The notes below the pieces were generated by a model. The model worked only from the letters and a program-made list of their open reading frames with translations, was not told the origin of the DNA and did not search any database. Positions 35,366-58,725 of a DNA stretch of 64,000 nt are shown piece by piece. The stretch's first letter is position 1. Every line of letters begins with the position of its first letter. Location of the stretch: the IMG/VR virus record IMGVR_UViG_3300025466_000014; one strand, given 5' to 3'. The DNA comes from a virus. A program made the translations under genes and the position numbers.

Positions 35366-35719
35366 CTAGCTAATTAGTTTTGGCTGCCTTTGATTGTGCA
35401 GTTGATAACGTTCCACTGGGTTCTTGGAATCCCAGTAATTCGTAAGACCATGCTCTACTGCGTAATCGGCTTTATCTGAGGCGTCACTTAAAAACGTGCA
35501 ACTCTTGTCGTTTACAGAGGACGCAATCATGCTACCTTGTGGCGACACGACAAACACAGACGGGTGTGCGCGTGAGTAGAGACCTGAAAACACTTCGTTT
35601 CCTAGTCCGTCAGTTCCATGCCTAGTAACCTCAGTAAAAATCCAGTAGGCACCTTGATGGTCTCTAAACTTCATTACTAAGTTTGAGGCTAGCAATCTTG
35701 TTTTGGCTTCTATCTTCAT
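35366..35719 (-). CDS. Hypothetical protein with shared leader MKIEAKTRLLAS
   Basis: RBS present; leader shared with paralog-independent ORFs. Confidence 0.75.
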   Translation of the reverse strand: MKIEAKTRLLASNLVMKFRDHQGAYWIFTEVTRHGTDGLGNEVFSGLYSRAHPSVFVVSPQGSMIASSVNDKSCTFLSDASDKADYAVEHGLTNYWDSKNPVERYQLHNQRQPKLIS

Positions 35720-35741
35720 TTTTTAATCCCTCGATTCCTTG

Positions 35742-35969
35742 TTAAGCGTAACCTGCGGCACTCCAGACTCCGTCTACTTTCAGAGCATTTATTTCGTGTT
35801 TATGCTGATGCATACTTCCATAGGGACTCAGCTTGCCCATCATTTGTTTTAGGTAAGTAGGTGTAGCCTGAGAGGGATCGCAGACAACAAGATGTGTTGA
35901 GTACAAAATCTTGTTGTCTTTAATCTTAGGAAACTCAGAAGCTTTTAGCCTTGTTTTTGCTTTTAGCAT
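35742..35969 (-). CDS. Hypothetical protein with shared leader MLKAKTRLKAS
   Basis: Leader motif; tight packing. Confidence 0.7.
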   Translation of the reverse strand: MLKAKTRLKASEFPKIKDNKILYSTHLVVCDPSQATPTYLKQMMGKLSPYGSMHQHKHEINALKVDGVWSAAGYA

Positions 35970-35970
35970 T

Positions 35971-36255
35971 TTACATATGATAGACTAAGAATATAAGCGC
36001 ACTTATTTCTTTTTTGGTTAAACCTAGTTCTTCAGGTAATCCTTTAAGACTTAGGGCTTTGCGAACAACTTCTAAATATCGTTCATGCGTAGCAACTTCA
36101 CCTTTGCCTGTCTTAATTAGCTCTTCTAAAGCAAACTCAAACATGCGCAACGAATGCTTATCGCCTTGCATAACGCCGTCAGCTAACCCGTCAGCAAACT
36201 CATAACAACGGTTAATAGCCTTTAATCGCAACCTAGCCCTAATCTTAACACTCAT
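35971..36255 (-). CDS. Hypothetical protein with leader variant MSVKIRARLRLKA
   Basis: GGAG RBS; leader-like N-terminus. Confidence 0.7.
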   Translation of the reverse strand: MSVKIRARLRLKAINRCYEFADGLADGVMQGDKHSLRMFEFALEELIKTGKGEVATHERYLEVVRKALSLKGLPEELGLTKKEISALIFLVYHM

Positions 36256-36272
36256 CTTAGCTCCCTAAAGTC

Positions 36273-37825: not shown

Positions 37826-37918
37826 TGTTTGTCCTATTCAGGGCAAGCCTATTGGTTCGTCGGGTTGAGGCTCATAAACACCTCATCAAAGGTAACCGTT
37901 TTTAGTTTGTAAATCCTT

Positions 37919-38299
37919 CTATTTAGCCGTAGCTAAAAGTCTGCTTTTTGCTTTTATTAGCCCATAAAAAGATGCGACCATTCTCTGTACTTCAAGAAGG
38001 TCATACCTACGAATTTTTGAATACCAAGACATTAAAAATGCCTGAGATACGTCAAACACTAAAGTATCGCCTTGTAGCGCATTGTCCGACCAACTTATCT
38101 CATCTCCTTCTTTAGGGCCTAAGACGTTTAGACCCAAAGACTCCAAGTAACGTGACAGCCCATGCAAAAAACCAGAAGACTTGGCACAGGTTTTAGGATT
38201 ACCTTCTATTTTTACCAGCAGTTCTCTTTTCTTAAAATCAGCTACTACTGAAGTCAATGCTATCTTGCCACGACCTGGGTAAATGTAAACCTGTGCCAT
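37919..38299 (-). CDS. Hypothetical protein ending in the leader-like motif KAKSRLLATAK
   Basis: 126 aa ORF with RBS. Confidence 0.65.
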   Translation of the reverse strand: MAQVYIYPGRGKIALTSVVADFKKRELLVKIEGNPKTCAKSSGFLHGLSRYLESLGLNVLGPKEGDEISWSDNALQGDTLVFDVSQAFLMSWYSKIRRYDLLEVQRMVASFYGLIKAKSRLLATAK

Positions 38300-38307
38300 T
38301 TCAAGTC

Positions 38308-38895
38308 CTACTTTTTAAAATTCTTTTCAATTGCCGTTTCCAGAGCGTCTACTGCGTGATAGAATTTGTATGCCCAGTCTGTTAAAGCTTTCATGCGCTC
38401 CTGCACTTGCTGGCGGATATCGTCTACCTCATTAGCCCAGGCTTCCATCTTTTTAGTGCCTTTGAATTTTTTATTCAGAGTAACCAGGTCTACGTCTTTT
38501 TTTACGCTAACGTCAATGACGCTGCTTAAGAGACCTTCAATGCTAATAAAGTCTTGAAATCCAAAAATAACTTCTTTCCCCTTTACAGAAAAGCTGAAAC
38601 CTAATTCAGTGCCCTTTTCTAAGGGATGTTTTGTGGTGAATGAAAGGTGTGTGTCACCTTCGTTGTCATAAATGCTTTTGTTTAGAGAGACTTTAAGTCC
38701 GTTCTTAGAAAAGACGTCAACAATAAATTTACCAGCCTGCTTGGCATCCATGTTGGCTTGAACTGCGGTAGCAGCAAGTTCACCTTCACGAACTTTTTTC
38801 AAGTCCTCACCGTCAATCTTGCCGTCACCGTTAATGTCAAGCTTCTTTTGCTTTTGTGTCAATGCAAGCAATCGAGTTTTAGCTTTAAGTTCCAT
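38308..38895 (-). CDS. Leader-bearing protein (MELKAKTRLLAL) with EF-hand-like loop
   Basis: DINGDGKIDGEDL fits the D-x-N-x-D-G-x-I-D-x-x-D Ca-binding loop. Confidence 0.75.
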   Translation of the reverse strand: MELKAKTRLLALTQKQKKLDINGDGKIDGEDLKKVREGELAATAVQANMDAKQAGKFIVDVFSKNGLKVSLNKSIYDNEGDTHLSFTTKHPLEKGTELGFSFSVKGKEVIFGFQDFISIEGLLSSVIDVSVKKDVDLVTLNKKFKGTKKMEAWANEVDDIRQQVQERMKALTDWAYKFYHAVDALETAIEKNFKK

Positions 38896-38920
38896 TTTTT
38901 AATTCCTTAGTTCCTTAAAG

Positions 38921-38945
38921 GAAAGGGCCCGTTAAGAGCCCCTTC
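38921..38945 (-). terminator. Possible intrinsic terminator
   Basis: Minus strand aggggctc-ttaac-gggccctt (two G-U pairs) followed by tccttt. Confidence 0.4.
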
Positions 38946-39765: not shown

Positions 39766-41115
39766 TTAGCTCTTGCTTATTTTTTGAACAACTAGATTAG
39801 TTAAAGCTTTTACGTCTAAGCTTGGCATGTAACCTTTGCAGTTGCTTTTTAATTTATCCCAGACCTCATTTTCAAGACGGTCACCTGAGTATTTTGCAAC
39901 GTATCGTTTAGCGTATTCGCCAAAAGCTTCAATAACAGCATCAGCGTATTTACCCATTAGCTCTGCGTCGGACGGGTCTACAATAGGCGCTAACTCAAAA
40001 GCCTTGGTCTCTTGATCTGTTAGGGCATGTGGGTACGTAATGATTCCGTGCCTTGCCATTTCGTAATGGACATTGGTTTTCTCAGGCCTAGGGTCAACAG
40101 AACTAAAACCTTTAGGGCAAGTGCCAATGCTTAGAGGCCTATTAACCATAGCGTACTTAAATTCTTTTGAGGCCACTATCGTTTTGCTGAATGCTTTGAA
40201 GGCGTCAATTTCCGTAGGATGCAGAATTTTTGTTTTGTCTTTAAACTTGGAACCCGGATACTTACTCAGATATTTATGCTTGTCCTCATGAGGCAGTTTA
40301 GACAACCAATCTTGAGTTCGCCTAGAAGTCAGCACTGCCGGAGGCTTGCCAAATCTTTTGCGAAGTTTTTTAGCGCCAGTGTAGAATAAGCAGAGCAGAA
40401 GACTACCAGCGTTGTCGCCAATAAAGCTTGCAACCTGTTGCAGAGCACCTAAACCATAGTCTACAACAGAGCCACCGGTCATGGCCCCAAAGACTAAGGT
40501 TGCTAGTGCGTTTACACCTTCAGCAGACGCAAAGAAGTCTACTAGGTCGTAATTACCGCGAAGAGCATCTATGATAGACTCAATAACGTCCAAATCACGT
40601 TCAATGTGTCCGGTGTTGGAGGCTTTAAAAACCATTAGCAGCAAGAGACCTGCAATAGCAAAACCTGTAAGCTTAGACAATACTGGGTTTCGCTTTATAA
40701 CTGCCTCCAAAGCAGCAATACGCTCTGCAGGTTTAAGGCTTCTTAGATAACGAGTATCTTTGAACGTTGCTGCTAGGTCTTGTAGCGCAGCAACAAATAG
40801 GTTTGTAGGTAAACCCATTGCAGCCTTAATACCCTTTAGAATGGCCTTTAGAGAAAAGCCAACACCCTTTAGGAGTTTAAAGACCGATTTTTCTTGAAAA
40901 GCCGCAATTATTTCCCCAATGCCTACGCCCACACCCTTAAGTGACTCCACTAAAGTGCCCAAGTCGCCCTTTAGGACTTTAAGCATTGAGGGAATTTTAA
41001 AGTCAAAAGCTTCTACTCTTGAGGTATCAAGAGAGGCAATAACCTTAGCGTATTGCTCATAGGTTATTGCATTTAGATCATCAGCTTGTAAACGGTATGC
41101 GGCTTCGAGTTTCAT
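39766..41115 (-). CDS. Leader-bearing (MKLEAAYRLQAD) multidomain protein with hydrophobic helices and DarA_C-like domain
   Basis: Hydrophobic FAIAGLLLLMVF and SLLLCLFY segments. YAMVNRPLSIGTCPKG...RHGIITYPHALT..E..AFELAP resembles the Defence-against-restriction-A C-terminal domain as I recall it. Confidence 0.55.
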   Translation of the reverse strand: MKLEAAYRLQADDLNAITYEQYAKVIASLDTSRVEAFDFKIPSMLKVLKGDLGTLVESLKGVGVGIGEIIAAFQEKSVFKLLKGVGFSLKAILKGIKAAMGLPTNLFVAALQDLAATFKDTRYLRSLKPAERIAALEAVIKRNPVLSKLTGFAIAGLLLLMVFKASNTGHIERDLDVIESIIDALRGNYDLVDFFASAEGVNALATLVFGAMTGGSVVDYGLGALQQVASFIGDNAGSLLLCLFYTGAKKLRKRFGKPPAVLTSRRTQDWLSKLPHEDKHKYLSKYPGSKFKDKTKILHPTEIDAFKAFSKTIVASKEFKYAMVNRPLSIGTCPKGFSSVDPRPEKTNVHYEMARHGIITYPHALTDQETKAFELAPIVDPSDAELMGKYADAVIEAFGEYAKRYVAKYSGDRLENEVWDKLKSNCKGYMPSLDVKALTNLVVQKISKS

Positions 41116-41444
41116 TTTGCAGCTCTTTTAGCTAGTTCATCTACCTTCTTGGTCTTAACTTTAACTTCTTTTTCTACTTCGGCTTTTTGTTTAATACCGC
41201 CCAAATTAAGGTAGCCGTTATAATTACCCACTTCTACTTTCCAGTCTAGTTGAAAACCGAAACGCACGGCAGGACGCAATTTAGAAGACCCTACGTCCAA
41301 GAAAGCGCGAAAATCCTTGCTGCTGTCTTTAACAACCGCAAATTTAGCCTCAGGGTATTGTTTAAGAACTTCTTCTTTCCATTCAGCTTTATTCTGCAAC
41401 AATTTACTGGCAGTTAAAAGTCTTGTCTTGGCTTCGAGTTTCAT
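41112..41444 (-). CDS. Hypothetical protein with leader MKLEAKTRLLTAS
   Basis: GAGG RBS; first 15 nt identical to those of 39766-41115. Confidence 0.75.
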   Translation of the reverse strand: MKLEAKTRLLTASKLLQNKAEWKEEVLKQYPEAKFAVVKDSSKDFRAFLDVGSSKLRPAVRFGFQLDWKVEVGNYNGYLNLGGIKQKAEVEKEVKVKTKKVDELAKRAAK

Positions 41445-41462: not shown

Positions 41463-41981
41463 TTAGAACGTGTTACCGTCATTCAGATAGTCGAAGCTAA
41501 AAGTAATAGACATATCAATAGCTGTAGACTGACTGCCGTCGTAAGCCACATCTGCAATAGCTGTAGGGAAGCAGCCTACCAAGATAATAGTCTGGGTAAT
41601 GTTACCGCTGTTGTCGTAGAGATCCAATTCCAAGTTTACTTTGTATGCTTGCGAAGTAGAGCCTGAATTGTTTTTCCAGGAACGCATGTAATCACGCCAG
41701 CCACGGAAAGCTTGGTAGGTTGAATAGTCAACGGTTTCCAAGAACTGAGCAGTAAAAGAATGCTCATAAAGAGCACGTCCTGCTTCCTGTTTAGCTGTAC
41801 CGTGAAGTTCAATCTTAATAGTGTCTACAGAGGATGCCGGAAGCGTAGACGTTTTGCATTTGTAGGTTAGTCCAGTAGCAGAACCAGACGCGCCGGGAAT
41901 GTTAGGAAAGAACAAATCAAAGTTCCAACCTTGTGCAGCGTCCGGTAGTGCGAGTACGTTTTGGTAAGAGGTGCGAGCCAT
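41463..41981 (-). CDS. Tail tube protein (T4 gp19-like)
   Basis: 172 aa immediately after the sheath. CKT..LP, GR..Y, L.G.FP..I..V.YD and F.FDY pattern. Confidence 0.8.
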   Translation of the reverse strand: MARTSYQNVLALPDAAQGWNFDLFFPNIPGASGSATGLTYKCKTSTLPASSVDTIKIELHGTAKQEAGRALYEHSFTAQFLETVDYSTYQAFRGWRDYMRSWKNNSGSTSQAYKVNLELDLYDNSGNITQTIILVGCFPTAIADVAYDGSQSTAIDMSITFSFDYLNDGNTF

Positions 41982-42029: not shown

Positions 42030-44000
42030 TCATGCTGTTTTGCCTGTAACCTGATTAAGCACTTCGGAGAACGAAACACCAGATTTAGAAATCACAACCT
42101 GCAGTTGAATTTCATGAATTGGAATCATCGGAATCAGAATTGCAGTACACACCAGAATACCAGCGTTAAAGGTATCAGGAGTATTGTTAGAACTGTCGCA
42201 AACAAAGCGAGCAGCAGCAAGGCCCTGAGCAGCAACAATGCTGTCCAAATAAGCTTGACAGCCATTTGTTAGGCTACGGCGTACTTGGTCAGAATTCATT
42301 TCTTCCAAAGCGTACAGCAGATAAGAGTACAAGGAAGTCTTGATTACGTTGACAATGCGACGTACAGACAACCAGCTAAGGGCCGATTGCTGACCTGCCA
42401 GTGTACGCTGTTCCCAAAGGGCAATACCTTGTCCAATAAAAGTGCGTGTGTAGTTAACCTGAGCCAAGTAAAGTGCCGTTGCCTTGCCGTCATCGTATTG
42501 ATAACGGGTTTTAAGCACTGGCAGTAGGCCACGGTTTAGACCTGCAATAGAGTAAGCTTGATTTGCCACACGGTCTGTACGAGCACACAAAGCTCCAGCC
42601 CAACCTGACGGCGGATTGTAGACTTGCAGTCCGTTAATAGTGTCTGCTTGCAACAAGTCAGGGCTAAACAAAGCACTATAAGTAGAATTCAAATTCAGTG
42701 TAAGATTACGATAGTCGATAGCACTCTGAAAGGCTTGGCTAGCTGAAGGTACGTCCAAAAGAGCAACCGCGTCACCACGAGCTTGCACTAAAGTATCCAA
42801 TCCGATTTGTGTAATAGGATCGGTAACGCCGCCGTTAATAAAGACGTTTGGTTTGTAAACTTGCGTGTTCTTAAACACTTGCAAGGCGTTAACAATGTCG
42901 TACGAAGTGGGTGCAGTTCCCGACGCACCGCCAGCCAAAGCCGTTTGTGCAATAGTGTTAACTGGGGGGATAGTTGTAAGAGCATTAGCAAAGTTAACTA
43001 CCTGCAGATACGACGAGAACGGGTTAATGGCGCTATCAATTTGCAATTGCTGACCAGAGTTAGAAACTTGCGAACCCAATGTGCAAGTCCATGTCTCCAA
43101 GGCCAAAGCCAATGGGTTAGTGTTATCCCAGATAGAAACCGTAAACTGGTTAGTGGTCTTAACGTTAGCAGCCACAGTAATAGGTTGCACCGTAGTGGTT
43201 GCGGTCAAAGCACCAGTATCGGTGAATGTAGTAGTAGCGCCGCCCAAAACGGTTAGCAAGCCGTAGCCCGCACCGCTTGTACGACCGTACACGTTATATC
43301 CAACCGCACCAGAAATAGCCGGCCAAGTCAGGGTAACAGCACCTGTGGACGTAATACCTACAGCTACCGTGATAAGGGTAGACGCAAGACTTTCACCATT
43401 AGCACCCAAGGCAGAAACTTGGTAATTATAAGAAGTACTACCAGCCAAAGTACCGCCAGTAAGCGCAACTGAAGAGGAAAGTACGGGTTGCGATACGTTT
43501 AGGCTCTGGATAGAGATAGACAAACCATTACCGTAAGAACCTGGGCCCTTGTTAGCGTAGAAGAAGGCAACTGCCTGTGTGCCAGCAGACACGTCAGCAT
43601 TGGTCAACAACGCGCTTAGGTTTGTGTTAGTAGGATCTGCAAGACCTTGTGGTACCAGAGAATAGATGCCAGTAGAAGAAACTTTTAGCAGTGCGCCAGA
43701 AGTTGCATAACTATGAACACCGCCTGTCAAAGTTTGATTAACCACACGAACAGCCCAGAGATCGGAGCCTTCGTTAAAGTAGTTCAATGCACTCTGAATG
43801 GTCATAGAAACCGCAGGATTGGGGTTTCCGTATTCAGTAATAAAGTCGTTTGAGTTAGTAAAATGCAAAGGTGCCGTAGATCCCTGACTAGAAACAACGG
43901 CAATACATGCGGAGGTAACAGAGTTAGAGACAATAATAGAGCTTAGGTTAATCTCAGTAACGCGAACGTCCGAGGCTCTTTGAACAATTTGTGCAGCCAT
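42030..44000 (-). CDS. Contractile tail sheath protein
   Basis: 656 aa; F..EYG.P; PPSGWAGALCARTD; S.AGLNRG; LWEQRTL; LSVRR motifs. Confidence 0.9.
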   Translation of the reverse strand: MAAQIVQRASDVRVTEINLSSIIVSNSVTSACIAVVSSQGSTAPLHFTNSNDFITEYGNPNPAVSMTIQSALNYFNEGSDLWAVRVVNQTLTGGVHSYATSGALLKVSSTGIYSLVPQGLADPTNTNLSALLTNADVSAGTQAVAFFYANKGPGSYGNGLSISIQSLNVSQPVLSSSVALTGGTLAGSTSYNYQVSALGANGESLASTLITVAVGITSTGAVTLTWPAISGAVGYNVYGRTSGAGYGLLTVLGGATTTFTDTGALTATTTVQPITVAANVKTTNQFTVSIWDNTNPLALALETWTCTLGSQVSNSGQQLQIDSAINPFSSYLQVVNFANALTTIPPVNTIAQTALAGGASGTAPTSYDIVNALQVFKNTQVYKPNVFINGGVTDPITQIGLDTLVQARGDAVALLDVPSASQAFQSAIDYRNLTLNLNSTYSALFSPDLLQADTINGLQVYNPPSGWAGALCARTDRVANQAYSIAGLNRGLLPVLKTRYQYDDGKATALYLAQVNYTRTFIGQGIALWEQRTLAGQQSALSWLSVRRIVNVIKTSLYSYLLYALEEMNSDQVRRSLTNGCQAYLDSIVAAQGLAAARFVCDSSNNTPDTFNAGILVCTAILIPMIPIHEIQLQVVISKSGVSFSEVLNQVTGKTA

Positions 44001-44907: not shown

Positions 44908-45123
44908 TTAAATGATTTTCTTGCACCATTTTTTGTATTCATAACGTAACTCCTCGTCTGAGGCGTCGTTAATTAAATAACGTTTGGCGTCTGCAAAATC
45001 GCCAACCTCACCTTCAACCTCGTAAGTCTTACGCATCTCGTCTAGAATTTCTTCTGTGCATGTTTTGCGTTGTTCATTTGTAAGACCGGATGCCAAAAGT
45101 CGCAGTTTAGCTGCAAGTTTCAT
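44908..45123 (-). CDS. Small protein with leader MKLAAKLRLLAS
   Basis: ATG at 45123 is preceded by AAAGGTG at suitable spacing, so it is preferred over GTG 45132. Confidence 0.7.
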   Translation of the reverse strand: MKLAAKLRLLASGLTNEQRKTCTEEILDEMRKTYEVEGEVGDFADAKRYLINDASDEELRYEYKKWCKKII

Positions 45124-45155
45124 TGCGTTCACCTTTGTTTTAAACCTAATAAGAG

Positions 45156-45192: not shown

Positions 45193-45594
45193 TTACTTGC
45201 TGGTACGAACCATACGTTTCAGAACAGAAGCCATTGCCATTGCTGGCTTGCTTTCTTCTTTCTCTTCTTCGCACTCTTCGTCGCATTCAACTTCATCCAA
45301 AGGATCGCCGTCCATTGCGTCAGCTTTAACAGCGTTAGGATCTTCTGTAGTTTCTTGAACGGCATCTTCCATGATGTTTTCGTTCTCGTAATCCAAAGAA
45401 GCATTCAGACGAGTCTTGGCAGAAATTTCCGATGCAAAGGCAGCCTTGTTAGAGGCTTCCAAAATACGGATTGCTGCTTCCAAGTCGCCTTGCTCACCAG
45501 CTTTAGCCAAAAGACGAGCAGCCAAAACAGGCTTGCCGTTTGACAGCTCATTCAATGCCAATGCAGTGTAATCCAAAGCACGATTGTATTTCAT
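45193..45594 (-). CDS. Head-cluster protein with internal SAKTRLNAS motif and acidic tail
   Basis: GGAG RBS; directly after the capsid gene. Confidence 0.7.
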   Translation of the reverse strand: MKYNRALDYTALALNELSNGKPVLAARLLAKAGEQGDLEAAIRILEASNKAAFASEISAKTRLNASLDYENENIMEDAVQETTEDPNAVKADAMDGDPLDEVECDEECEEEKEESKPAMAMASVLKRMVRTSK

Positions 45595-45691: not shown

Positions 45692-46747
45692 TTAACGAAT
45701 GCCCTTAGCAAATGAACGGCTGTTAGCAACCGACACTGCCAAAGATTCGTGAATTGCAAAACCGCGACCTGGCATCTTTTCCATAGAGATGTCAGTAGGA
45801 GTAGACTGCAGACCACCACGGTCAGAGTAAGCACCATGGTTAAGAGCGTCAGCAATAACGTAGAACTCACCCTTGCCGAGAACCTTGTGCTCTGGATGAC
45901 GATAAGCGTCGGAAGTAACGGTCATGCCGTACATTACGCCCAGTTCACCAGTCAACAACAATTCATGACGAGCAACTGGATCGATAGCGTTAAAGAAATC
46001 GCTATTACCAGTAATGTCTTGCCACAAGTCAGCAGCCAACAGCAAGTTAGCAGCCTTCATGCCCCACTGAGTTACTTGCGTAACAACAGTAGACAGCAAG
46101 TAAGGAGTCAACTGGCCAGAGATAATGGTCAAAGGATTGTCCACACCAACCAAAGTTTGCAATTGGTTATAGTACAAACGATCTTCTGCAACCATCGTAG
46201 CTTCCACGCCTTCGATGAATTTCTCTTGGAGAACGTCACCAGAAGATTGGTTCAATTCAACTTGGGGAATGAAAGGACGTGCAATAACAGTCATTTCAGT
46301 TGGGGTAAACCATTTGTCACGAGTGATTTGGCTTTCCACCTTAGTGGGGCTGGTGCTCCAAACAGCGGTAACGTTCTTGGTGCGAACTGGGAAGCGAGGA
46401 ATAGAACCTTGCTGCACGTCAATCTTAGCCAGATACTTACGCATGAAACCTTGACGATTAGCGGTCTGATAAAGAGCATCAGAAATCTTTTCGCCCAGAA
46501 CGCGGTGAGCTTCTTTGTCATTGAAAGCAGCCATAACCAATTCGCGGCTGGTAGCAGCGTCAATGGTCAGCATGTTGCCAGAGGCAGCAGCTTGCAAGAA
46601 CTTGGATTGCTGAGTCAGCAAATCACGTTTAGACGAAGCATTCAGTTCGCCATTAGCACCAACAGCACGCTCGTTGGAATTAGCAAACTTCAGTTCTGTG
46701 GCCAAAATTGGTGCTTTAGAAGCACGAAGACTAACTTGATTACGCAT
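45692..46747 (-). CDS. Major capsid protein (putative)
   Basis: 351 aa; follows scaffold and decoration-like genes; strongest codon bias; AGGAG RBS; followed by a terminator. Confidence 0.75.
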   Translation of the reverse strand: MRNQVSLRASKAPILATELKFANSNERAVGANGELNASSKRDLLTQQSKFLQAAASGNMLTIDAATSRELVMAAFNDKEAHRVLGEKISDALYQTANRQGFMRKYLAKIDVQQGSIPRFPVRTKNVTAVWSTSPTKVESQITRDKWFTPTEMTVIARPFIPQVELNQSSGDVLQEKFIEGVEATMVAEDRLYYNQLQTLVGVDNPLTIISGQLTPYLLSTVVTQVTQWGMKAANLLLAADLWQDITGNSDFFNAIDPVARHELLLTGELGVMYGMTVTSDAYRHPEHKVLGKGEFYVIADALNHGAYSDRGGLQSTPTDISMEKMPGRGFAIHESLAVSVANSRSFAKGIR

Positions 46748-47536: not shown

Positions 47537-48964
47537 TTAAACCAGGGATTGATTACCAGCCAAAATCGCCATAGCAGAAGACGATTTCACACCAGCAGAA
47601 AGAAGAGCACCACGATCACGACGCAATGGAGTATAAAGAGCTGCACTTACTGTAGTAGGCAAATCTTCCATGTCTTCCATTTCTTCGTCATCTACGTTAG
47701 CTTCCAAGTCGTCTTCGCCTTCATAGTCTTCGTCGCTAGTAAGGTCCAATGCAGACGCGTACTGGTTACGAACTTCTTCTGGCATTTCAGAAATCTTGTT
47801 AGCCAATGTCAAAATAGCTTTAGCGTAGCTAACACCGTGTTCGGCAAACATAGCACGAACCAGATTAGCACCACCACGAACGCCCGCCTTAACAAGTTCG
47901 TTTTCCAAGCCAGCCTTCAGAGTGTTCTCTGCGCCCTTGAAAAACTTGCGGTTAATACCAACTGCGGCAATAGCCAAGCTTTGTTCCAAAGCCTTAGACT
48001 TACGGTCGATAGAAGCAAGAGTAGAAGCAAGTTGCTTTTCTACTTTGGAAGCAACGATCTTAGAAGCAGCTTTAGAAGCTGTCAACTTAACCTTAGACAG
48101 GATGAAACCGGATTGGATAAGACCCTTACGCAGACCTTTTGCGTCCACGTTAGCGGCCACAACATCTTGATACTGAGGTGTCAGATAGATGTCGCCGATG
48201 CCTGCTTTGTTAGCAGAAGAACGGCCAATAGAAGCAATGATACGATTGGAACGAATAACGTGAACGGCAGAAGCAATGGTTGCAAACTGCAAATCGTGTT
48301 CGTCGTGCTCTTTAACTTCGTCAGCATCAACCACAGCCATTGTGTCGTCTTCGCCTTCAGCTTCAAATTTCTCTTCAGCAGCAGACTCAACTTCTTCTGG
48401 CTCTTCGGTTTCAAGCATTTCTTCAGCAGCGTGGTCTTCCGGAATGCCCAGTTCTTCGCCGTCTTCCAGTTCTTCGTCATCCTCCAACTCACCCTTGATT
48501 TCTTTTTGGTGGTCTTCAAGGAATTCGTCGTTTTCTTCTTCGCTCTCTTCGCCCAAGTCTTCAAAATCAGATTCAATGGAGTGAATATTGAATTCGTCTT
48601 CCATATTATCTTCATCAGCCTCGTCTTCAACATCCGCAGAAACGTTGGTGTTGATAACTGGCATCTTAACTTGTTTTTCCAGATAGCCAATAGATGGATC
48701 TGGGGTATCGGAATTAACACTACCACCGCGTGGCAACTGCTTGTCTGTCAGAAGGGCAGCCTTTGCAGATGCACGAATAGGTGCTTTAGGAATACCTTTA
48801 TGATCTTCACGAGTATGAGTTGAGCCGCCTTTGTGTTCATCGGGGTCAATCAGCATTAGATCTTCTTGGTGATTCGTAGTACCAAATCCCGAATCAGTCG
48901 CCTTCATCTTTTCCGTATTAGGGAAATGAGTCGGGGCAGCCTTGACTCGTACTTTTTCAGTCAT
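47537..48964 (-). CDS. Putative prohead scaffold/core protein
   Basis: 475 aa with long E/D tracts and helical C-half; upstream of the capsid genes. Confidence 0.6.
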   Translation of the reverse strand: MTEKVRVKAAPTHFPNTEKMKATDSGFGTTNHQEDLMLIDPDEHKGGSTHTREDHKGIPKAPIRASAKAALLTDKQLPRGGSVNSDTPDPSIGYLEKQVKMPVINTNVSADVEDEADEDNMEDEFNIHSIESDFEDLGEESEEENDEFLEDHQKEIKGELEDDEELEDGEELGIPEDHAAEEMLETEEPEEVESAAEEKFEAEGEDDTMAVVDADEVKEHDEHDLQFATIASAVHVIRSNRIIASIGRSSANKAGIGDIYLTPQYQDVVAANVDAKGLRKGLIQSGFILSKVKLTASKAASKIVASKVEKQLASTLASIDRKSKALEQSLAIAAVGINRKFFKGAENTLKAGLENELVKAGVRGGANLVRAMFAEHGVSYAKAILTLANKISEMPEEVRNQYASALDLTSDEDYEGEDDLEANVDDEEMEDMEDLPTTVSAALYTPLRRDRGALLSAGVKSSSAMAILAGNQSLV

Positions 48965-49165: not shown

Positions 49166-49711
49166 TTATTTGAATGTAACTACTCTACCCATAAGGAAGA
49201 ACTGCTTAATGCCGCAGTTTATGGGCGTTGTAGACTTTTCAGGAACAATACCCTTTTCGGCAATGCTCTTGAGCAGATCGTCTGTTATGTATCGTGCCCG
49301 GTCAAACTCGCCTCTAAAGAACATTTGAACAGGCATGTAGGCATCATTTGTTAGTTCCCTGATTGCGTCTGCGCGAGCACGGCCTTCGTGTGTCTTAATC
49401 TTTGCCATGCCCTTTTCGTCTACTGCAATTTCCAAGAATGGTACGGCAATAGGACGGCCATCTTCCATTAGCTTTTTTAGCTTTGCCGTGTCTTCAGTTC
49501 TGTCCGCCGGCGCCGCTAATTTTCTAAAAACAGAAGGTTTAATAAAAGTAGTGCATCCAAGGTAGGCTACGTTAGCTCCCAGTGGAGTGTTACCTGCGCC
49601 CTTGCGGTTGTCGTAGGCAATCCCTGAGAAGTTAAAAGCGTCATCTACATTTTCAGGAGTAGCATTGTCTTCATGAGTTGCTCTAAGTCTATAGGCTGCA
49701 TTTAGAATCAT
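49166..49711 (-). CDS. Leader-bearing (MILNAAYRLRAT) ParB/Srx-like domain protein
   Basis: PFLEI...KTHEGRARADA resembles the ParB-N GH(R)R motif. Start re-set to 49711 (or 49714) after the AAAGGA RBS. Confidence 0.55.
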   Translation of the reverse strand: MILNAAYRLRATHEDNATPENVDDAFNFSGIAYDNRKGAGNTPLGANVAYLGCTTFIKPSVFRKLAAPADRTEDTAKLKKLMEDGRPIAVPFLEIAVDEKGMAKIKTHEGRARADAIRELTNDAYMPVQMFFRGEFDRARYITDDLLKSIAEKGIVPEKSTTPINCGIKQFFLMGRVVTFK

Positions 49712-50936: not shown

Positions 50937-51686
50937 CTACCAGTTAAAGTGTGTGTCGGACAAACAGACTACCCAGGCAGGATCAGCAACAAGGCTCATT
51001 TCAATTGGAGACAAGCCGTGTGCGTTTAGATACGCAAGCTTTTCTTCTCCGCCTTCGTTAATTAGCCGCCAATTTACATCCTTAATTGTCGTAATGTGGC
51101 CGCAGTTTTTAAACTGATTATCTGTAGCCTCTTTACCGCACACAGAGCATGTAAAGTAGTCTGCTTCTGTTCCCATAGAGCCGGTGTTAAGTTCGCCAGT
51201 AAGAACTCTATTGGCTACTTCAGGATTTTTGGTCTTGTCGATACCAACAAGACCCATTACCTTCCAGTGTCGATCTTCGCCAAAACCTTTAATAGGAGTA
51301 AGCATTGTATCAAATACTACGCCCAGAGCTTTTGTACAATCTCGGTTATCGTGTTCCAAATGCACCGGACAGCCCGCCCAGGCTTTGTACACCTGACGAT
51401 TTACCGGTGGTGGCTGGAACTTAATAAGCTCTTGCAAAGGAAAGGCAATGCCGTTTCGGTTGGGCATATCCGAAGGACAGATAGGCAAAATCTTTAGAAT
51501 ATAGTCTTCAATGCGCGGACTAATGTGGTAAGTTTTTGCTGCAAAAGGAAGCCATGAGAAATCTACCGCGGCAATAGGATCGGCTGCGTTCATAGCTTCT
51601 TCCTTTTTAATAGGCATTTCCGGGTAGCTTATGTCTGCAACAATTGGTTTTTTGTTTTCATAGTAAGCTTTTGGAAACTTTTGCAT
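50937..51686 (-). CDS. Putative prohead maturation serine protease (HK97/herpes-like fold) with Zn-finger insert
   Basis: VHLEHD (His), TGSMG (Ser), IEMSLVADPA terminal motif, CSVCG...CGH insert. Start MQKFP at 51686 is coupled by TAATG. Confidence 0.65.
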   Translation of the reverse strand: MQKFPKAYYENKKPIVADISYPEMPIKKEEAMNAADPIAAVDFSWLPFAAKTYHISPRIEDYILKILPICPSDMPNRNGIAFPLQELIKFQPPPVNRQVYKAWAGCPVHLEHDNRDCTKALGVVFDTMLTPIKGFGEDRHWKVMGLVGIDKTKNPEVANRVLTGELNTGSMGTEADYFTCSVCGKEATDNQFKNCGHITTIKDVNWRLINEGGEEKLAYLNAHGLSPIEMSLVADPAWVVCLSDTHFNW

Positions 51687-52072
51687 TATGCCGCTCCAAT
51701 AAATAAAGTAGCTGCTCCTGTAAACGTTATTAGCAGAGCAGTCGTTGGATATGAGATGTTTGTTAGTACACCGGTAGAAACAGTAACTGCGGTTTGCCAA
51801 TGACTAGTTGAGTCATTGTTTGGATCTAGGGCGAACTCAATAGGCACTAGCGTCGTTTGTACGTTTACAGGACCAGTGCCCAATTTTTGTACCGAGATAG
51901 TGTTAACTCTTACCTTACCGGTTACCAAAGCGTCAATAGGTATGCGAGCAACATCGCCAGCGCCTCCTTGTACGGTAACGTAACCAAAGGGGACTTTTCG
52001 AGTTACGTACCCACCACTTCGGTTATTTCCGTTAATGCCCGAAATGGCATTGTTTCTAATTATGGCAGCCAT
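51686..52072 (-). CDS. Putative virion protein (128 aa)
   Basis: Beta-rich, GGAG RBS, structural cluster. Confidence 0.6.
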   Translation of the reverse strand: MAAIIRNNAISGINGNNRSGGYVTRKVPFGYVTVQGGAGDVARIPIDALVTGKVRVNTISVQKLGTGPVNVQTTLVPIEFALDPNNDSTSHWQTAVTVSTGVLTNISYPTTALLITFTGAATLFIGAA

Positions 52073-52534: not shown

Positions 52535-55500
52535 TTAGCGTGTCTTCTTGGTAACCTTTTCCTCTGCCACCGCTTTAGGATCTTGCGCAGGTCCAATATC
52601 TACGGTTGCATCGTTTTTAAGTTCCATGATGTTAGACAACTTACGAATGGACTTAGCTTGAACATTAAGTTGGTCAATGTTGTTAACGCTAATTCCAGCG
52701 TCCTTCAATTGTCCCAGAATCTTATGAATGCCCCCAATGTTGGCTGCATAGATACTAAGTGAAGGATTGCTAATTACCCAGTTAGTGGACGGAGCCTTAT
52801 AACGAGAGCTCATAGCCTTTGCTGTTGCAGGATGACCTGCACCGTACGGCATTGCCAAATAAGCTACACCATAACGCGGTGCAACACCAGCCTTAGCTGC
52901 TTCCCTCAGAGCCGCAGCATCGCGATCACCACCGTCCGTAACCAACGCAAACATTTGCAGCAACTTAGGATTCGACGTTGGCTTCCAACCCAAACGCATG
53001 TAATTCATATAGGCAGCCTTGCCCATAAGTTTTGCATAGTGTTTGTGTGTTTGCAAAGCATTGCTATCCAACTCTTGAGCCAACGTAATGAACGCATCCG
53101 AATCAACTTCGGTAGAAACGTTAAAGCCTGCGTCAGCCCACAGACGGAATTGAGTAATCAGTTGCTTATGATTACGAATACGAGTGTGAACCATCTTAGG
53201 TTCTAACTTAAAGCCCAAAGCCTCCAAAGCCTTAACCGCGCGTTTGTCAGAACTTTCAATGTATCCAAGACGAACGTAGCCGTTAACGATAGTCAAGTCC
53301 AGACCAATAGAAAGCTTGCCTTCCTTCTTACGAGCCTTCTGTTTTTCTAACAGACGTTGACGTTCCTGTTCTTTGGCAATTTCGCGTTGCTGTTTTAGTG
53401 TCAACTTAGCAGGCTTAGAGTAAACTGCAGGCGCTGTAATTTCGCCGGTAACAGGCAAGCCAGCGGCCTCTGCGAGTTTAATCTTCATGTCGTTGGAGTT
53501 AGTCTCAGTGCGCGTAATAATAAAAGCATTAGTAACACGCAAACGAGAAACCACAGTGCCGTCGTCTAAGGATACACGCAAAGCAGTAACAGATTCGCCT
53601 TTAACACGACCAGCCGACAGGATAAATCCATCACCGTATTCTGTATGAACACGTTTACCAGCCAACAGTTCTTTTTGACGGCGAATCTCAGGATTCTTTG
53701 CACCGGTTTCGTCTTCGTCATCTCCACCTGGACCAGAATCATCATCTTCGTCATCAGTAGACAACTCAAGGCCAAGGTAGTTGTCAACACGGACTAAACC
53801 TAGTTCAGAAGCTGCGTAAAGCTCTGTACCTTGTGCGTAAGGTACCGCAGACAAAATAGCTGCACCAGTTGGGACAGGGGCCACCTTAATAGGCGTAAAT
53901 TTCACCCCACCCTCAGCCTGCTGTTTGGCCTTGTATTCTTCGTAGTCAGAAGTAACAACAGAATTCAGTTGTTGCATCGAACGCTGGTACTGAGCCAGGT
54001 TGGTATCAAAGTCATTCTTAGTCTGAATAGCTTCCAGGTTCATTGGAATGATTGGGATATCTTCAATTGACTGATAGGCTGGGTCTGTAGAGTTATCAAA
54101 CTTAGCCAAAGCAACAATCTTTGCCCGCAAACGTGCTGCTTTAGTAACGTCAATAGTGCGGTTAGCAACCAATGTGTCGAATCGCAGACGTTGACGTTGG
54201 TCACCACCCTTACCAAAGTAAGGACGTGCAATACGGCAATCACCTTGCTCTTGTTCACCAGGGGTCCACACACCTTCAACACGAGCCAAGTAACCAGCAA
54301 TCTGCAAGTTTAAGCCAACTTCAAGCGACTTACGAATACCAATCATCCATTTGATGTTTGGATCTTTCTTGAAACGATTAACGTGTTCTGTCTTTTGTGA
54401 GGCAGAATAGAGCAAACCGCATTTTTGCAACTCAGGAGGCATTGAAGCGAACAGAGACGCAGCAGATGCATTGTAGTTAACGAAAACAATTGCCTTAGAA
54501 GTATTGTTTTCAAACCAGTCAGTCAGCAAGCGGGCCAACTGCATAGCTTTAGGAGATTTCAGGTCGTCACCAGACAAAGGTGGAATAAACTTACCTTCTT
54601 CTGTTTTAAAACCGTTAACAGAGTAAGGATGCGATGCTGGATCAGTAACAAAGCGCTCAATGTCTGCAAGGTAGGGTTGCAAAGCAGGGCCTACGTCGCC
54701 GTTATCGTCAAGAATGTCTTCAGTATTTGCATCTTCGTCAGCTTCGTCCATATCGCCAAAGTTTTCCTCATCTTCAGCGGAAGCTTTCTTGCCGTTAAGT
54801 TTTTCCAGAAGTTTACGCGCACCTTTGTCTGTTTCAGCTAACTTCTTAATCTGCTGAATCATGTCATCAAAGATAGCGTCGTACATTACCTTTTGATTTG
54901 CAGTCAACTCAACCGAAATAAATCGGTCTTCACGTTTAGGGAGAGCGTAAGCCCACTCACGACGTTTAGCAGAAGCCCATACAACAGAACCCTTTAACTT
55001 AGGCAGAATGTGAGCAATCGAGTTCTCACCACTAGTGCGCCACTGCATAACACGATCACCGCTGACGTTCTCACCGTAGGTCTGATTGAAGTCGTTACGT
55101 GTACCAAAGATTGTTGGGTCAAGAATAGCCATTTGACCAGGGAGGTCAGAAGGCGAATCCGGATTAAGAGTACCTGAAGCAATACGCTTTTTAGGAATGT
55201 CGGCGATAAGGCTCATTACTGCCTTAGCACGAGCAGACTTAGCGTTCTTGAGAAAGTGCGACTCATCCAAGAACACATACCCAGGACGGAACTGACGAAT
55301 CAACTCAGTTACAGGGAATACTAGGATAGAAGACGTTCCATAGCCAGCCGAACGAGCGCGGAATTTCAACGCGTCGTAATCAACAATCATAACAGTATTG
55401 ATGGGAGCAGCCTTTAGAATCTGCTCATAACGAGCAATACCAGAAGTCCTAAAGTTATAGGACGTAATTGGAATCACGTTAACTTGACCGTCAGTAAACT

Positions 55501-57304
55501 CTACCAGTTCTGAAACGTAGTTAGCCACTAGGTGACCAGGGCACATAATCAGATAAGGAGCCGAACGGTTAGCCTTAATCTCGTACAAAACGTCTGTAAT
55601 AGCAAGCAAGCTCTTACCACCGCCAGCAGCAACATCCAAAACGGCTAGGTCAGGAGACTCGCGCAGCAGACAACGGATTTTAACTTGATGCGGTTGTAGC
55701 CCTGCGTCAGGTTTGCTGAATTTATCTGTAAGCAGCGGAGCGTCCGGAGGAGTCCAATCAGGAATTACACCCTGATTAAGTGCGCCTTTGTTTGCCTCAT
55801 TTGCCTCAGCACGTACTTGGCTAATCTTGCTACCGTAGCAAGCAAGGAGGGAAATGATACCCAGCTGGCTGGTTATAGTAACAACCGCATACTTGGCGTA
55901 AAGTGCTTCCAAGTTTTTAGTCATGCCCTCATGCAAGGCATAGATAAATTCTACCACTGGCAAAAAGCCAGGCTGATCTGTCTCGGCAGTAAAGTCTGCA
56001 TAGCGCAAGACAAAGTTGGGCTGTTCTTTAACAGTAGCTTCCCATACCTTCTCAAAATACTGATCAATAGTTACGTTGCTTAGGTAACCTTTGGCGTTAG
56101 CCTCAGCGGTTTCTTCTGCTGTAAGGGCACCCAGATAGCGCGATACGTTTGTAGGTACGCTGCATTGCGCCGCAAAGTTAACAAGACCTTTGAGGAAAGC
56201 GGGATTAACATTACGATTAAGCAGATTCATTGCCATGGTAGGAGTGCATTTGCGGAAATGCTCCATGGGCATAATCTGAATCTTACCGCTTGTATCCGAA
56301 TAAGAAAATTTGTTGTTAATCCAGTCTACCAAGATGGGCAGATTAGACGGTAACCGAGGGCGCATGTTAGACTTAGGAGTGCGCAAAGCAAATTCACCGT
56401 TTTCTCCCACGCTTGCACTTGCGTAAGTAGACTCATAGATAGTCGTGTTATCGCAAACGCTAGGAATGTAGAGTGGGTCTCCGTCCATGTTAATGGCAAT
56501 AGAGTACTGGTCAACTCGCTCATCCAAGGGATCGTGTTTGGGGAGCGTCTCAGAAATGCGAGACATCGAAATGGCAGACTTGCCGTAGTATTTAGAGACG
56601 TATTCTGCTTCCACCCAGGCACTAACCAAAGGGTACAAATCAACAGCACGTACCTGCAGCCAGTCTGTAGAGGTCAAAAACTCTACAACTTCTTTTGGAA
56701 TCTTAAACTCCAAATAAAGAACAGAAGGCGTACCTGCCTTGATTACTGCGGCTTCTAGAGTAGTCGAAAATATGGACTTGGTACCGTTATCGAGGCCGGA
56801 GTTTAAGAACAATTTTGTAACCGGATAACGCTTACCACCAGAAGCCAAAGCTACGCGAATCTCTTCAAGAGTCTCTTCTGCCGGAGGCACGTCCGTAAAC
56901 AACTGGAGAGTGTTAAACAGGTTGTCAACACTATTCATGGCAAGGATAGGAAGCTCAAGCTTAAAATACGGAGCTTCGGTATTGAATTTTACCAGAGTAG
57001 TGTACTGAGCCAAAGCCATTTCTTGGCGATTATTTTCCCAGTCACTGAGTGCCTTAGACATTGCCTTCTTTGCCTTGCGCTCTTCTTGAGACACTGCGCG
57101 AGGAGGTTTAGCAAGGCTAATAACGCGAGTGTCCATAAAGGCACCCAATGCAAGTTTCAAAAGAACCTTTCGGGCATCGCCGGTATAGACCTTACGAAAT
57201 ACTCCAAGAAAACCTGTTTTTAGAGTTGCGTCGGAAACAGAGTAAGCCTGATCTTGGACGAGGTTCGTCTTAGGTCGAGCTATCTGAAAAGCTTTTAATT
57301 CCAT
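52535..57304 (-). CDS. Giant SNF2-family SF2 ATPase/helicase (1589 aa)
   Basis: LQPHQ; DVAAGGGKS; IMCPGHLVANY; FLDESHFLKN; SGT; AIVFVNY; EVGLNLQ; WTPG..EQ..CRIAR. Confidence 0.85.
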   Translation of the reverse strand: MELKAFQIARPKTNLVQDQAYSVSDATLKTGFLGVFRKVYTGDARKVLLKLALGAFMDTRVISLAKPPRAVSQEERKAKKAMSKALSDWENNRQEMALAQYTTLVKFNTEAPYFKLELPILAMNSVDNLFNTLQLFTDVPPAEETLEEIRVALASGGKRYPVTKLFLNSGLDNGTKSIFSTTLEAAVIKAGTPSVLYLEFKIPKEVVEFLTSTDWLQVRAVDLYPLVSAWVEAEYVSKYYGKSAISMSRISETLPKHDPLDERVDQYSIAINMDGDPLYIPSVCDNTTIYESTYASASVGENGEFALRTPKSNMRPRLPSNLPILVDWINNKFSYSDTSGKIQIMPMEHFRKCTPTMAMNLLNRNVNPAFLKGLVNFAAQCSVPTNVSRYLGALTAEETAEANAKGYLSNVTIDQYFEKVWEATVKEQPNFVLRYADFTAETDQPGFLPVVEFIYALHEGMTKNLEALYAKYAVVTITSQLGIISLLACYGSKISQVRAEANEANKGALNQGVIPDWTPPDAPLLTDKFSKPDAGLQPHQVKIRCLLRESPDLAVLDVAAGGGKSLLAITDVLYEIKANRSAPYLIMCPGHLVANYVSELVEFTDGQVNVIPITSYNFRTSGIARYEQILKAAPINTVMIVDYDALKFRARSAGYGTSSILVFPVTELIRQFRPGYVFLDESHFLKNAKSARAKAVMSLIADIPKKRIASGTLNPDSPSDLPGQMAILDPTIFGTRNDFNQTYGENVSGDRVMQWRTSGENSIAHILPKLKGSVVWASAKRREWAYALPKREDRFISVELTANQKVMYDAIFDDMIQQIKKLAETDKGARKLLEKLNGKKASAEDEENFGDMDEADEDANTEDILDDNGDVGPALQPYLADIERFVTDPASHPYSVNGFKTEEGKFIPPLSGDDLKSPKAMQLARLLTDWFENNTSKAIVFVNYNASAASLFASMPPELQKCGLLYSASQKTEHVNRFKKDPNIKWMIGIRKSLEVGLNLQIAGYLARVEGVWTPGEQEQGDCRIARPYFGKGGDQRQRLRFDTLVANRTIDVTKAARLRAKIVALAKFDNSTDPAYQSIEDIPIIPMNLEAIQTKNDFDTNLAQYQRSMQQLNSVVTSDYEEYKAKQQAEGGVKFTPIKVAPVPTGAAILSAVPYAQGTELYAASELGLVRVDNYLGLELSTDDEDDDSGPGGDDEDETGAKNPEIRRQKELLAGKRVHTEYGDGFILSAGRVKGESVTALRVSLDDGTVVSRLRVTNAFIITRTETNSNDMKIKLAEAAGLPVTGEITAPAVYSKPAKLTLKQQREIAKEQERQRLLEKQKARKKEGKLSIGLDLTIVNGYVRLGYIESSDKRAVKALEALGFKLEPKMVHTRIRNHKQLITQFRLWADAGFNVSTEVDSDAFITLAQELDSNALQTHKHYAKLMGKAAYMNYMRLGWKPTSNPKLLQMFALVTDGGDRDAAALREAAKAGVAPRYGVAYLAMPYGAGHPATAKAMSSRYKAPSTNWVISNPSLSIYAANIGGIHKILGQLKDAGISVNNIDQLNVQAKSIRKLSNIMELKNDATVDIGPAQDPKAVAEEKVTKKTR

Positions 57305-57663
57305 TTTTTAATATCCTCGGTTATTTTGGTAAGTTGGGAAAATTCTTTTAAATCTTGAGGCTCTAGCTGGTACTTGCTTTGGTAGGCTACTCTATATAGC
57401 TCTTTGTACTTCTGTATGGTTAAAATTGATAGGCTCAGAGTTAACCTTAATTCCTTAGCCTGGTTTACGCCTAAGCTAAATTTAGGTGTCCCTGGCTGGT
57501 TTTTAAGAACGTTTTTACTATAGGCTCCTCGGGCTCTTGCAACAGCCTGCGCAACCGATACTCCCAGAATTGTTCCTGAGTATCTAGGCGTACTCTCAAA
57601 TTCAAAGTTAAACAGATAATATTTAGGCGTAACCTCAGGTATTCTAGCGGCAACTTTTGTCAT
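57295..57663 (-). CDS. Hypothetical protein (122 aa)
   Basis: Coupled to both neighbours. Confidence 0.65.
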   Translation of the reverse strand: MTKVAARIPEVTPKYYLFNFEFESTPRYSGTILGVSVAQAVARARGAYSKNVLKNQPGTPKFSLGVNQAKELRLTLSLSILTIQKYKELYRVAYQSKYQLEPQDLKEFSQLTKITEDIKKWN

Positions 57664-57664
57664 T

Positions 57665-58318
57665 CTATATTGACCTTATTACTGGAACCTTATAAGGCCT
57701 TTTAGAGCTGGCTATAGGTTTCCAAAGACTGTTAAAGATAAAATCCTTTAAATTTTGACCTTCAGCGTCCGGATGAATTGGGCAACGTAGAATGTAACCT
57801 ATGTGCCACTGATTGAGAGAGTTTATTTGGTCGTTGGCAATAAACACTTCAAGTCCAGGCTCCCAGGAAACGCTGTAGAATGTCTTATCATTTTTACGGA
57901 GACGACTAAACCTATAAGGTATAGGAAACCTAAACACCTGCTTGAACCAAGAAGCATCCTGTACTCTGTATTGACCTGAGACGCGTATCTCAAATCCGTA
58001 GTCGGTAATGGTTACCTCATGTTTGACATTTAATATCGGCTTCAAACCTCGAAGAAACTTAGTTCTGTCTAAAAAGAGAACAAACTGAGAACGTCGTTTA
58101 AAAAGGTACTGCCTAATAGCACTGTTAGCGTCACCTTTAAAAAACGGGTCTAAGCCTTGAGCCTGACAAAGATTTATAAACTTTTCTAAGACAATTACCC
58201 AAGCTTCTTTAGACGTCAATTTAGCCGCGCCTGTACTAAGGCAGGCTTGAAACCAAGCGTCCGCAGCAAAAGGGTTTAAGCTCTTAGGAAAGTCTAAAGG
58301 GTTTGGGTAGTTGTTCAT
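57665..58318 (-). CDS. Hypothetical protein (217 aa)
   Basis: Operon packing; aromatic-rich. Confidence 0.7.
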   Translation of the reverse strand: MNNYPNPLDFPKSLNPFAADAWFQACLSTGAAKLTSKEAWVIVLEKFINLCQAQGLDPFFKGDANSAIRQYLFKRRSQFVLFLDRTKFLRGLKPILNVKHEVTITDYGFEIRVSGQYRVQDASWFKQVFRFPIPYRFSRLRKNDKTFYSVSWEPGLEVFIANDQINSLNQWHIGYILRCPIHPDAEGQNLKDFIFNSLWKPIASSKRPYKVPVIRSI

Positions 58319-58320
58319 TT

Positions 58321-58725
58321 TTAAGGCTGAAGGTCGTCCATCAAAAGAGATTGCTCTGGCGGAGTTTCAACACCACCGTCATCGTGGGTTAGAACTTGCA
58401 ATTCTGGTTTTTCGCCGTTTTCAGGCACACCATCATTTTTTAAGTCAAACACTACGCCTGTTTTAGGCAGCTCACGTGTTTCAGAGTTAACGTATGTAGC
58501 CTCAGGAGGCATTTCAACGCTAACAAACTTGTTTAGCTTATCAAAGTAACCGTATTTAACTTTTGCACCTTTTACACGGCTAGCATCCTTCTCTGCTGAC
58601 TTACGGTCAACGTGCTGGTCATGATTTTGACCAGGAAAGAATACCCACCAAAGAGGCTTATTATTAAACACATAATCATAGTCGCCTTCAGAAGCCTGAA
58701 GGCGAATCTTAGCTGCTAGTTTCAT
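58321..58725 (-). CDS. Hypothetical protein with leader MKLAAKIRLQAS
   Basis: AAGGA RBS; leader motif. Confidence 0.75.
   Translation of the reverse strand: MKLAAKIRLQASEGDYDYVFNNKPLWWVFFPGQNHDQHVDRKSAEKDASRVKGAKVKYGYFDKLNKFVSVEMPPEATYVNSETRELPKTGVVFDLKNDGVPENGEKPELQVLTHDDGGVETPPEQSLLMDDLQP

Follow-up and report, generated by a model that had tools for sequence, protein, structure and literature searches.

A short leader peptide on unrelated proteins as the probable capsid-targeting sequence of phiRSL1-like phages

Introduction

In bacteriophage T4, the internal proteins IPI-III and the protein Alt carry a capsid-targeting tag, M-K-T-Y-Q-E-F-I-A-E, that is removed by the protease gp21; the cleavage motif of phiKZ and SPN3US ends in Glu, and the consensus of herpesvirus proteases is (V/L/I)-x-Ala / Ser. 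The first ten residues of T4 IPIII are enough to package foreign proteins, with residues 4 and 7 serving targeting and residues 8 and 10 serving processing, and processing of Alt takes place at both of its ends (PMC9026906). For the phiKZ and SPN3US protease, substrates can be predicted from a sequence motif (PMC10052503), substrates of the human cytomegalovirus protease are built on ...Asn-Ala / Ser-Ser and cut after Ala (PMC13486704), and DarA of phage P1 is a head-internal protein that coats the inside of the capsid and is shortened at its N-terminus by the P1 protease (PMC12810830). Here, we analyse a 64,000-nucleotide stretch of viral DNA (IMG/VR record IMGVR_UViG_3300025466_000014; hereafter the window), in which a 12-residue leader peptide with the consensus M-(K)-(L/I)-x-A-(A/K)-x-R-L-x-A-(S/T) opens nine minus-strand genes at 35.3-58.7 kb. 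On balance, this peptide is probably the capsid-targeting sequence of the phiRSL1-like lineage and a functional counterpart of the 10-residue tag of T4.

The head, neck and tail genes of this phage, a relative of Ralstonia phage phiRSL1, are grouped as one module in a minus-strand block at 35-64 kb. The capsid protein of phiRSL1 is 67% identical to that of the window; the next closest are those of BcepSauron, BCSR5 and Motura. The phage had originally been grouped with the jumbo phages, a label that does not hold, as the parent contig of 184,847 bp lies slightly under the 200-kb limit. The leader is undescribed in the literature searched, whose coverage did not include the phiRSL1 proteome and cryo-electron microscopy papers; the PaBG paper mentions processing and does not give the sites.

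Results

A conserved leader on nine genes

Translation from the start sites named in the original prediction reproduced the leader in all nine cases (lengths in amino acids, aa):

35366..35719, minus strand: 117-aa tagged protein, leader M-K-I-E-A-K-T-R-L-L-A-S (score 27.1 with the other-phage matrix)
35742..35969, minus strand: 75-aa tagged protein, leader shorter by one residue (start site and matrix match)
35971..36255, minus strand: 94-aa protein with a degenerate leader, R-A-R-L-R-L-K-A, a probable variant (score 14.8-21)
38308..38895, minus strand: 195-aa tagged protein with an EF-hand-like calcium loop right behind the leader (EF-hand_5, E 6e-4, below the Pfam cut-off)
39766..41115, minus strand: 449-aa tagged protein in which about 310 aa at the N-terminus form a helical module, followed by I-V-A-S (313-316) and DarA_C (317-378)
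41112..41444, minus strand: 110-aa tagged protein whose leader has one extra residue, R-L-L-T-A-S (start site and matrix match)
44908..45123, minus strand: 71-aa tagged protein (start site and matrix match)
49166..49711, minus strand: 181-aa tagged protein, body from a widespread phage family
58321..58725, minus strand: 134-aa tagged protein (start site)

A weight matrix trained on 82 leaders, all from other phages, found 11 matches among the 63 proteins of the window, compared with a mean of 0.08 in shuffled proteomes, and nine of the 11 lie in residues 1-6 (binomial 3e-14). The enrichment test is not fully independent, because the training leaders were themselves first retrieved by a matrix seeded from this window. 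The proteins had been described as sharing no visible likeness past the leader, which agrees with BLASTP comparisons made without the first 14 residues: these yielded zero pairs within the window at E<1e-3, and paralogy is rejected on this ground. Identical residues use the same codon in only 27% of leader-pair cases, in line with the earlier claim that the peptide rather than the DNA is conserved, and the DNA flanking the leaders is about 30% identical between copies, which is the random level. Codon sharing this low, together with random flanks, indicates selection on the peptide and leads us to reject a DNA cassette or promoter repeat. That the leader is real and under selection is, in our judgement, practically certain.

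In an alignment of 91 leaders anchored on the Arg-Leu pair, Arg and Leu are invariant, both Ala positions are conserved at near 90%, and the information content of the sequence logo drops to background right past A-(S/T/A/D). The leader is mostly basic, with a net charge of +2 to +3. The replication module (22-35 kb, plus strand) and the fibre module (4-22 kb) yielded no leader matches; the tag is confined to the morphogenesis module. Within this module, the description of the tagged genes as scattered singly proved inaccurate, as three of them adjoin (35366-36255), as do two others (39766-41444). Longest-open-reading-frame (ORF) or annotated starts lie 3-13 codons ahead of the leader Met at window positions 45132 and 49747 and in L001 16914-17414 (phiRSL1 ORF133). 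The leader is thus usable for correcting start sites across the phiRSL1-like clade.

A leader swap on homologous cargo

The body of the 181-aa protein (49166-49711) belongs to a phage family that counts 660 cluster representatives at E<=1e-3, shares an invariant H-E-G-R-x-R core and occurs both as small proteins and as a domain in giant proteins of 2,000-5,532 aa. Profile searches of Pfam and PDB returned nothing for this family, for which there is no Pfam model, and Protein Atlas gave only a weak ParB_N-like lead for the 181-aa protein. The conserved body starts at one fixed point, and the 10-12 residues that precede it vary by lineage. Among 81 small representatives, 26 bear T4-type leaders (M-K-T-F-R-Q-F-L-E, M-K-V-R-E-L-F-E), which end in hydrophobic-x-Glu, against 3.1 obtained from shuffled N-termini; three of the 81 bear the R-L-x-A leader. 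A complete 368-kb viral contig encodes a homologue with a T4-type leader as well as a Pfam Peptidase_S77 (T4 gp21) protease (83 bits), and the gene next to this homologue also begins M-K-F-K-E-F-L-E. The lineage-wise swap of leaders on homologous cargo argues that the leader tracks the head-assembly lineage and not the cargo. Following the head machinery, as these leaders appear to do, is the behaviour expected of a capsid-targeting sequence.

C-terminal and internal copies of the leader

Besides the N-terminal matches, two strong matrix matches that were missing from the original prediction are located in the last 12 residues of a 126-aa protein and at residues 57-66 of a 133-aa acidic protein:

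37919..38299, minus strand: 126-aa protein with the C-terminal tag I-K-A-K-S-R-L-L-A-T, followed by two residues and the stop codon (matrix match)
45193..45594, minus strand: 133-aa protein directly downstream of the capsid gene, with two to three internal tag-like repeats and an acidic tail behind them; it may be a small scaffold or core protein

The 133-aa protein holds weaker copies of the tag at residues 38-48 and 23-33. Its homologues are phiRSL1 ORF137 and the product of a BcepSauron gene adjoining the capsid gene of that phage, and proteins at the same position in Motura and in the locus L090 combine an internal tag with an acidic run behind it. A second family with C-terminal copies was found in BcepSauron and in L074, L077, L082 and L084. 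The C-terminal copies end two residues ahead of the stop, and 10 were observed where 3.4 were expected. The tag is therefore not strictly N-terminal and not simply a removable propeptide. The BcepSauron member of the second family, a protein of 161 aa (L027 4135-4620), is tagged at both its N- and its C-terminus.

Leaders in related phages

Six-frame scans of four complete relatives gave 15 strong N-terminal matches in Motura, nine in BCSR5 and seven in BcepSauron, nearly all preceded by an ATG at a distance of exactly two codons and mostly located less than about 25 kb from the capsid and protease genes. Over about 1 Mb scanned in this way, strong matches occurred almost exclusively at true N-termini. 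In phiRSL1, a longer, divergent leader opens ORF120, 123, 124, 127 and 133. Among 72 uncultured IMG/VR loci, which were gathered by way of the protease, 33 have N-terminal matches within 10 kb of the protease gene. One tagged gene always lies behind the protease gene, as at 49711 in the window, at phiRSL1 ORF133 and in several uncultured loci. Two more distant relatives have leaders of their own, M-N-F-A-x-R-(I/L/V)-L-A-S on five genes (L102) and M-K-(L/I)-x-I-S-(L/M)-(A/S)-S on three genes (L113). The BCSR5 leaders (L050, L051, L054, L055) show a second conserved block, x-E-L-L-A-(A/D), right behind R-L-K-A-(A/S); the BCSR5 leader is thus about 20 residues long and two-part, with two candidate sites.

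BLAST sorts the 92 non-redundant tagged proteins into 66 clusters, and for most cargoes of the window no homologue was detectable in the four isolated relatives or the 72 loci, a scarcity from which we conclude that cargo turnover is fast.

Cargo proteins

Most tagged cargoes are orphans. The cargo of the window comprises the DarA_C protein, the protein with the EF-hand-like loop, the H-E-G-R family member and six orphans. The 449-aa protein matches DarA_C with E 6e-14 and 52.8 bits against a Pfam cut-off of 27, is the only window protein that tested positive for this domain, and matches phrog_1926, annotated as 'released from the phage upon host infection'. Outside DarA_C, it gave no sequence match, and the AlphaFold2 (AF2) model of this protein was too poor to use (predicted local distance difference test, pLDDT, 51). 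In the 195-aa protein (38308-38895), a canonical-looking D-x-N-x-D-G-x-I-D-x-x-D loop begins eight residues past the leader. For the 134-aa protein (58321-58725), a Protein Atlas search returned nothing; its C-terminal 45 residues recur in six further tagged proteins (65-278 aa) from relatives. Tagged cargo of the relatives includes a NUDIX hydrolase, an RNase T-like exonuclease (RNase_T), DUF3175 and ribosome modulation factor (RMF). The original prediction of an address tag for packaged, injected effectors thus stands as regards a selected, clade-wide N-terminal tag on diverse proteins of the head and tail module, whereas the term 'effector' is justified for few cargoes only.

The prohead protease and its candidate sites

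The tagged genes lie among the following genes of the minus-strand block:

41463-41981, minus strand: tail tube
42030-44000, minus strand: tail sheath
45692..46747, minus strand: major capsid protein (phrog_2522)
46785-47513, minus strand: virion structural protein
47537..48964, minus strand: 475-aa acidic scaffold-like protein with Asp/Glu-rich blocks
49722-50522, minus strand: papain-family cysteine peptidase (Pfam Peptidase_C1, E 7.5e-19)
50937-51800, likeliest start 51686, minus strand: prohead maturation protease (phrog_18299)
52535-57304, minus strand: large helicase
59378-60832, minus strand: portal/connector

The AF2 model of the prohead protease (pLDDT 85) has T4 gp21 as its best structural match (PDB 5jbl, Z 8.9, root-mean-square deviation 2.6 A over 124 residues), and herpesvirus proteases align next (Z 5.4-5.7). 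As modelled, the protein encoded at 50937-51686 has the fold of T4 gp21 and herpesvirus assemblin. The protease also contains an invariant C-x-x-C ... C-x-H cluster (residues 180, 183, 195 and 197 of the 249-aa form) that resembles a zinc-binding insert. Homologues are labelled 'endolysin' in the BCSR5 and NCTB records, and the family reaches Erwinia and Dickeya jumbo phages, cluster C mycobacteriophages and phage G.

At its end, the leader reads aliphatic-x-Ala-(Ser/Thr). A comparable stretch, V-S-L-R-A-S followed by K-x-P, is present at the N-terminus of the capsid protein, and at residues 7-11 of this protein aliphatic-x-Ala-Ser/Ala followed by Lys/Arg-x-Pro is kept in about 40 distinct relatives. 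In the scaffold-like protein (47537-48964), Asp/Glu make up 44-49% of two blocks (residues 101-232 and 406-440), and aliphatic-x-Ala-Ser/Ala is conserved at 242 and 439. Across 37 scaffold homologues, this pattern is kept at three positions, compared with 0-1 for permuted patterns; two of the three sites bracket the acidic blocks, and the site past the acidic block is retained even in relatives whose scaffold homologue is just 25-39% identical. In the 449-aa protein, I-V-A-S directly abuts DarA_C, and six relatives carry the N-terminal module of this protein without DarA_C. The recurrence of aliphatic-x-Ala-Ser at the leader end, the capsid N-terminus and the scaffold positions suggests that these are plausible sites of the protease.

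The papain-family peptidase (49722-50522), which sits between the prohead protease and the tagged gene 49166-49711, was considered as a leader peptidase and rejected; its sole homologue was found in the closest uncultured relative (L056), and we therefore regard it as accessory. The phage G capsid structure (6wkk) was uninformative as a guide to the mature N-terminus, since its deposited chain is all but complete, and the first ~58 residues of the capsid protein studied here have no counterpart in it.

Discussion

Based on these observations, we propose the following hypothetical multistep scenario, in which (i) the mostly basic tag would dock its protein onto the assembly core during prohead assembly, with the acidic scaffold-like proteins 47537-48964 and 45193-45594 as candidate docking partners; (ii) the gp21-fold protease (50937-51686) would cut at aliphatic-x-Ala / Ser/Thr; (iii) the same cutting would remove the N-terminal tags, trim the capsid protein, dismantle the scaffold and separate the two modules of the 449-aa protein; and (iv) the freed cargo would remain in the head and probably enter the host with the DNA. 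The individual steps merit different degrees of trust. We consider it likely that the tag is a head-loading address and that the tagged proteins are packaged, and it is reasonable to suppose that the acidic scaffold-like proteins would serve as docking sites. Removal of the tag by the prohead protease is evenly balanced in our assessment, and the exact scissile bond is uncertain. Injection of the cargo into the host falls somewhat short of that. A bolder version, which we put forward tentatively, holds that a position-independent loading peptide (N-terminal, C-terminal or internal) docks on the acidic scaffold and that the gp21-fold protease has shifted its specificity from Glu to a herpesvirus-like Ala / Ser.

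Several observations weigh against this scenario. The protease is unmatched by Pfam S77. An amphipathic helix is rejected for the leader, because its hydrophobic moment is no higher than in shuffled leaders. With respect to cleavage, the presumed P1' residue varies (S, T, A, D, L), the register of the capsid motif is ambiguous by one position, and in the family of the 449-aa protein Q, L or M often replaces Ala, so that most members are without it. Internal [LI]-x-A-[ST] matches in the window number 42 against a rough composition-based estimate of ~32 and are not enriched. For these reasons, the case for cleavage is suggestive but indirect. Moreover, a cut at a C-terminal copy would free 2-3 residues only, so cleavage would not be the entire purpose of the tag, and with a loss so close to nil the peptide must act as a binding element. 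T4 Alt, with its processing at both ends, is a precedent.

This last point leads to the rival explanation that the tag docks its protein onto a prohead or virion partner, for instance the acidic scaffold or the inside of the capsid, and is retained after maturation, in the manner of encapsulin cargo-loading peptides or the coat-binding helices of scaffolds. Such a peptide could work from either end or internally, as the C-terminal copies in two families and the BcepSauron protein tagged at both ends would have it, and both the replacement of Ala in most of the 449-aa family and the pairing of a positively charged tag with strongly acidic scaffold-like blocks fit it well. It would, however, have to treat the likeness between the leader and the capsid and scaffold motifs as coincidental, although this short motif is kept both at scaffold positions and at the N-terminus of the capsid protein, conservation of the leader ends exactly at A-(S/T), and homologous cargo in T4-type lineages has leaders that end in the known cleavage motif. 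We therefore judge docking without cleavage to be unlikely.

A tag for another destination or for regulation, one that a chaperone or an AAA+ protease recognises (as a lifetime-limiting degron) or that directs proteins to tail or baseplate assembly instead of the head, appears still less probable. Its appeal lies in the several tagged genes that adjoin the sheath and tube genes and not head genes, but it is at odds with the T4 capsid-targeting-type leaders on cargo homologues elsewhere, with the tag-like repeats in the acidic protein adjoining the capsid gene, and with the tagged gene that always lies behind the protease gene. That the leader has no function of its own and stems from common ancestry, from a recombination cassette or from a preferred context for translation initiation is effectively refuted: M-K-L... 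starts are indeed frequent in bacteria and phages, but the synonymous codons are scrambled, the flanks are random, likeness ends with the leader, Arg and Leu are invariant in 91 leaders, C-terminal and internal copies exist, and the six-frame scans match almost exclusively true N-termini. A capsid-targeting sequence remains our preferred reading.

If this is true, the probable packaged proteins of an entire, little-studied clade, which includes cultured Ralstonia, Burkholderia and Achromobacter phages, can be listed from the tag, and the DarA_C protein, NUDIX and RNase T-like enzymes and ribosome modulation factor would be candidates for the first proteins that the host meets. The address-peptide strategy of T4 would have been rebuilt with another sequence by a lineage with an only distantly related protease, and the tag would offer a 12-codon handle for loading proteins into these phages. 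We know of no gp21-fold phage protease with an Ala-Ser-type site; if confirmed, this would to our knowledge be a novel specificity among these enzymes, and, should the position-independent peptide and the Ala / Ser specificity both hold, the sequence would reveal the complete packaged proteome of the clade, 12 added codons could load any protein, and the rules by which phage and herpesvirus maturation proteases cleave would be linked.

Comparison with known systems

Encapsulin cargo-loading peptides resemble the phiRSL1-like tag in that a short terminal peptide loads diverse cargo into an HK97-fold shell, and some phiRSL1-like tags are C-terminal as well; in contrast, the phiRSL1-like tag has another sequence, is mostly N-terminal and viral, and is probably coupled to proteolysis. 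With the head-internal anti-restriction protein DarA/Hdf of P1, the 449-aa tagged protein has in common the DarA_C domain, that is, a C-terminal part of 60 residues only, while its N-terminal module is unrelated by sequence. The phiKZ and SPN3US propeptides (gp175/gp245) belong to large myoviruses in which many head-internal proteins are processed by a gp21-like protease, but these propeptides are long and dissimilar, whereas phiRSL1-like phages reuse one short uniform leader. Herpesvirus assemblin sites share the order aliphatic, any residue, Ala-Ser, and the protease model aligns to these enzymes; the likeness is limited to motif and fold class, T4 gp21 is structurally closer, and cleavage after Ala in the phiRSL1-like phages is what we infer.

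The closest parallel is T4 capsid targeting. In both, a short N-terminal peptide of 10-12 residues occurs on unrelated proteins, the cargo set differs among relatives, the peptide stops where the protease motif would sit, and the head module includes a gene for a gp21-fold protease. Propeptides at both ends occur in T4 Alt and, as predicted from the tags, in one BcepSauron protein, and homologous cargo bears one or the other tag depending on the lineage. Unlike the T4 tag, to which it has no sequence similarity, the phiRSL1-like tag is basic and not acidic, ends in Ala-Ser/Thr and not in Leu/Ile-x-Glu, and also occurs at C-terminal and internal positions, and its protease lies outside Pfam S77. 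Since the leader ends in R-L-x-A-(S/T) without Glu, we regard the phiRSL1-like system as an analogue, not a sequence member, of the T4 capsid targeting system.

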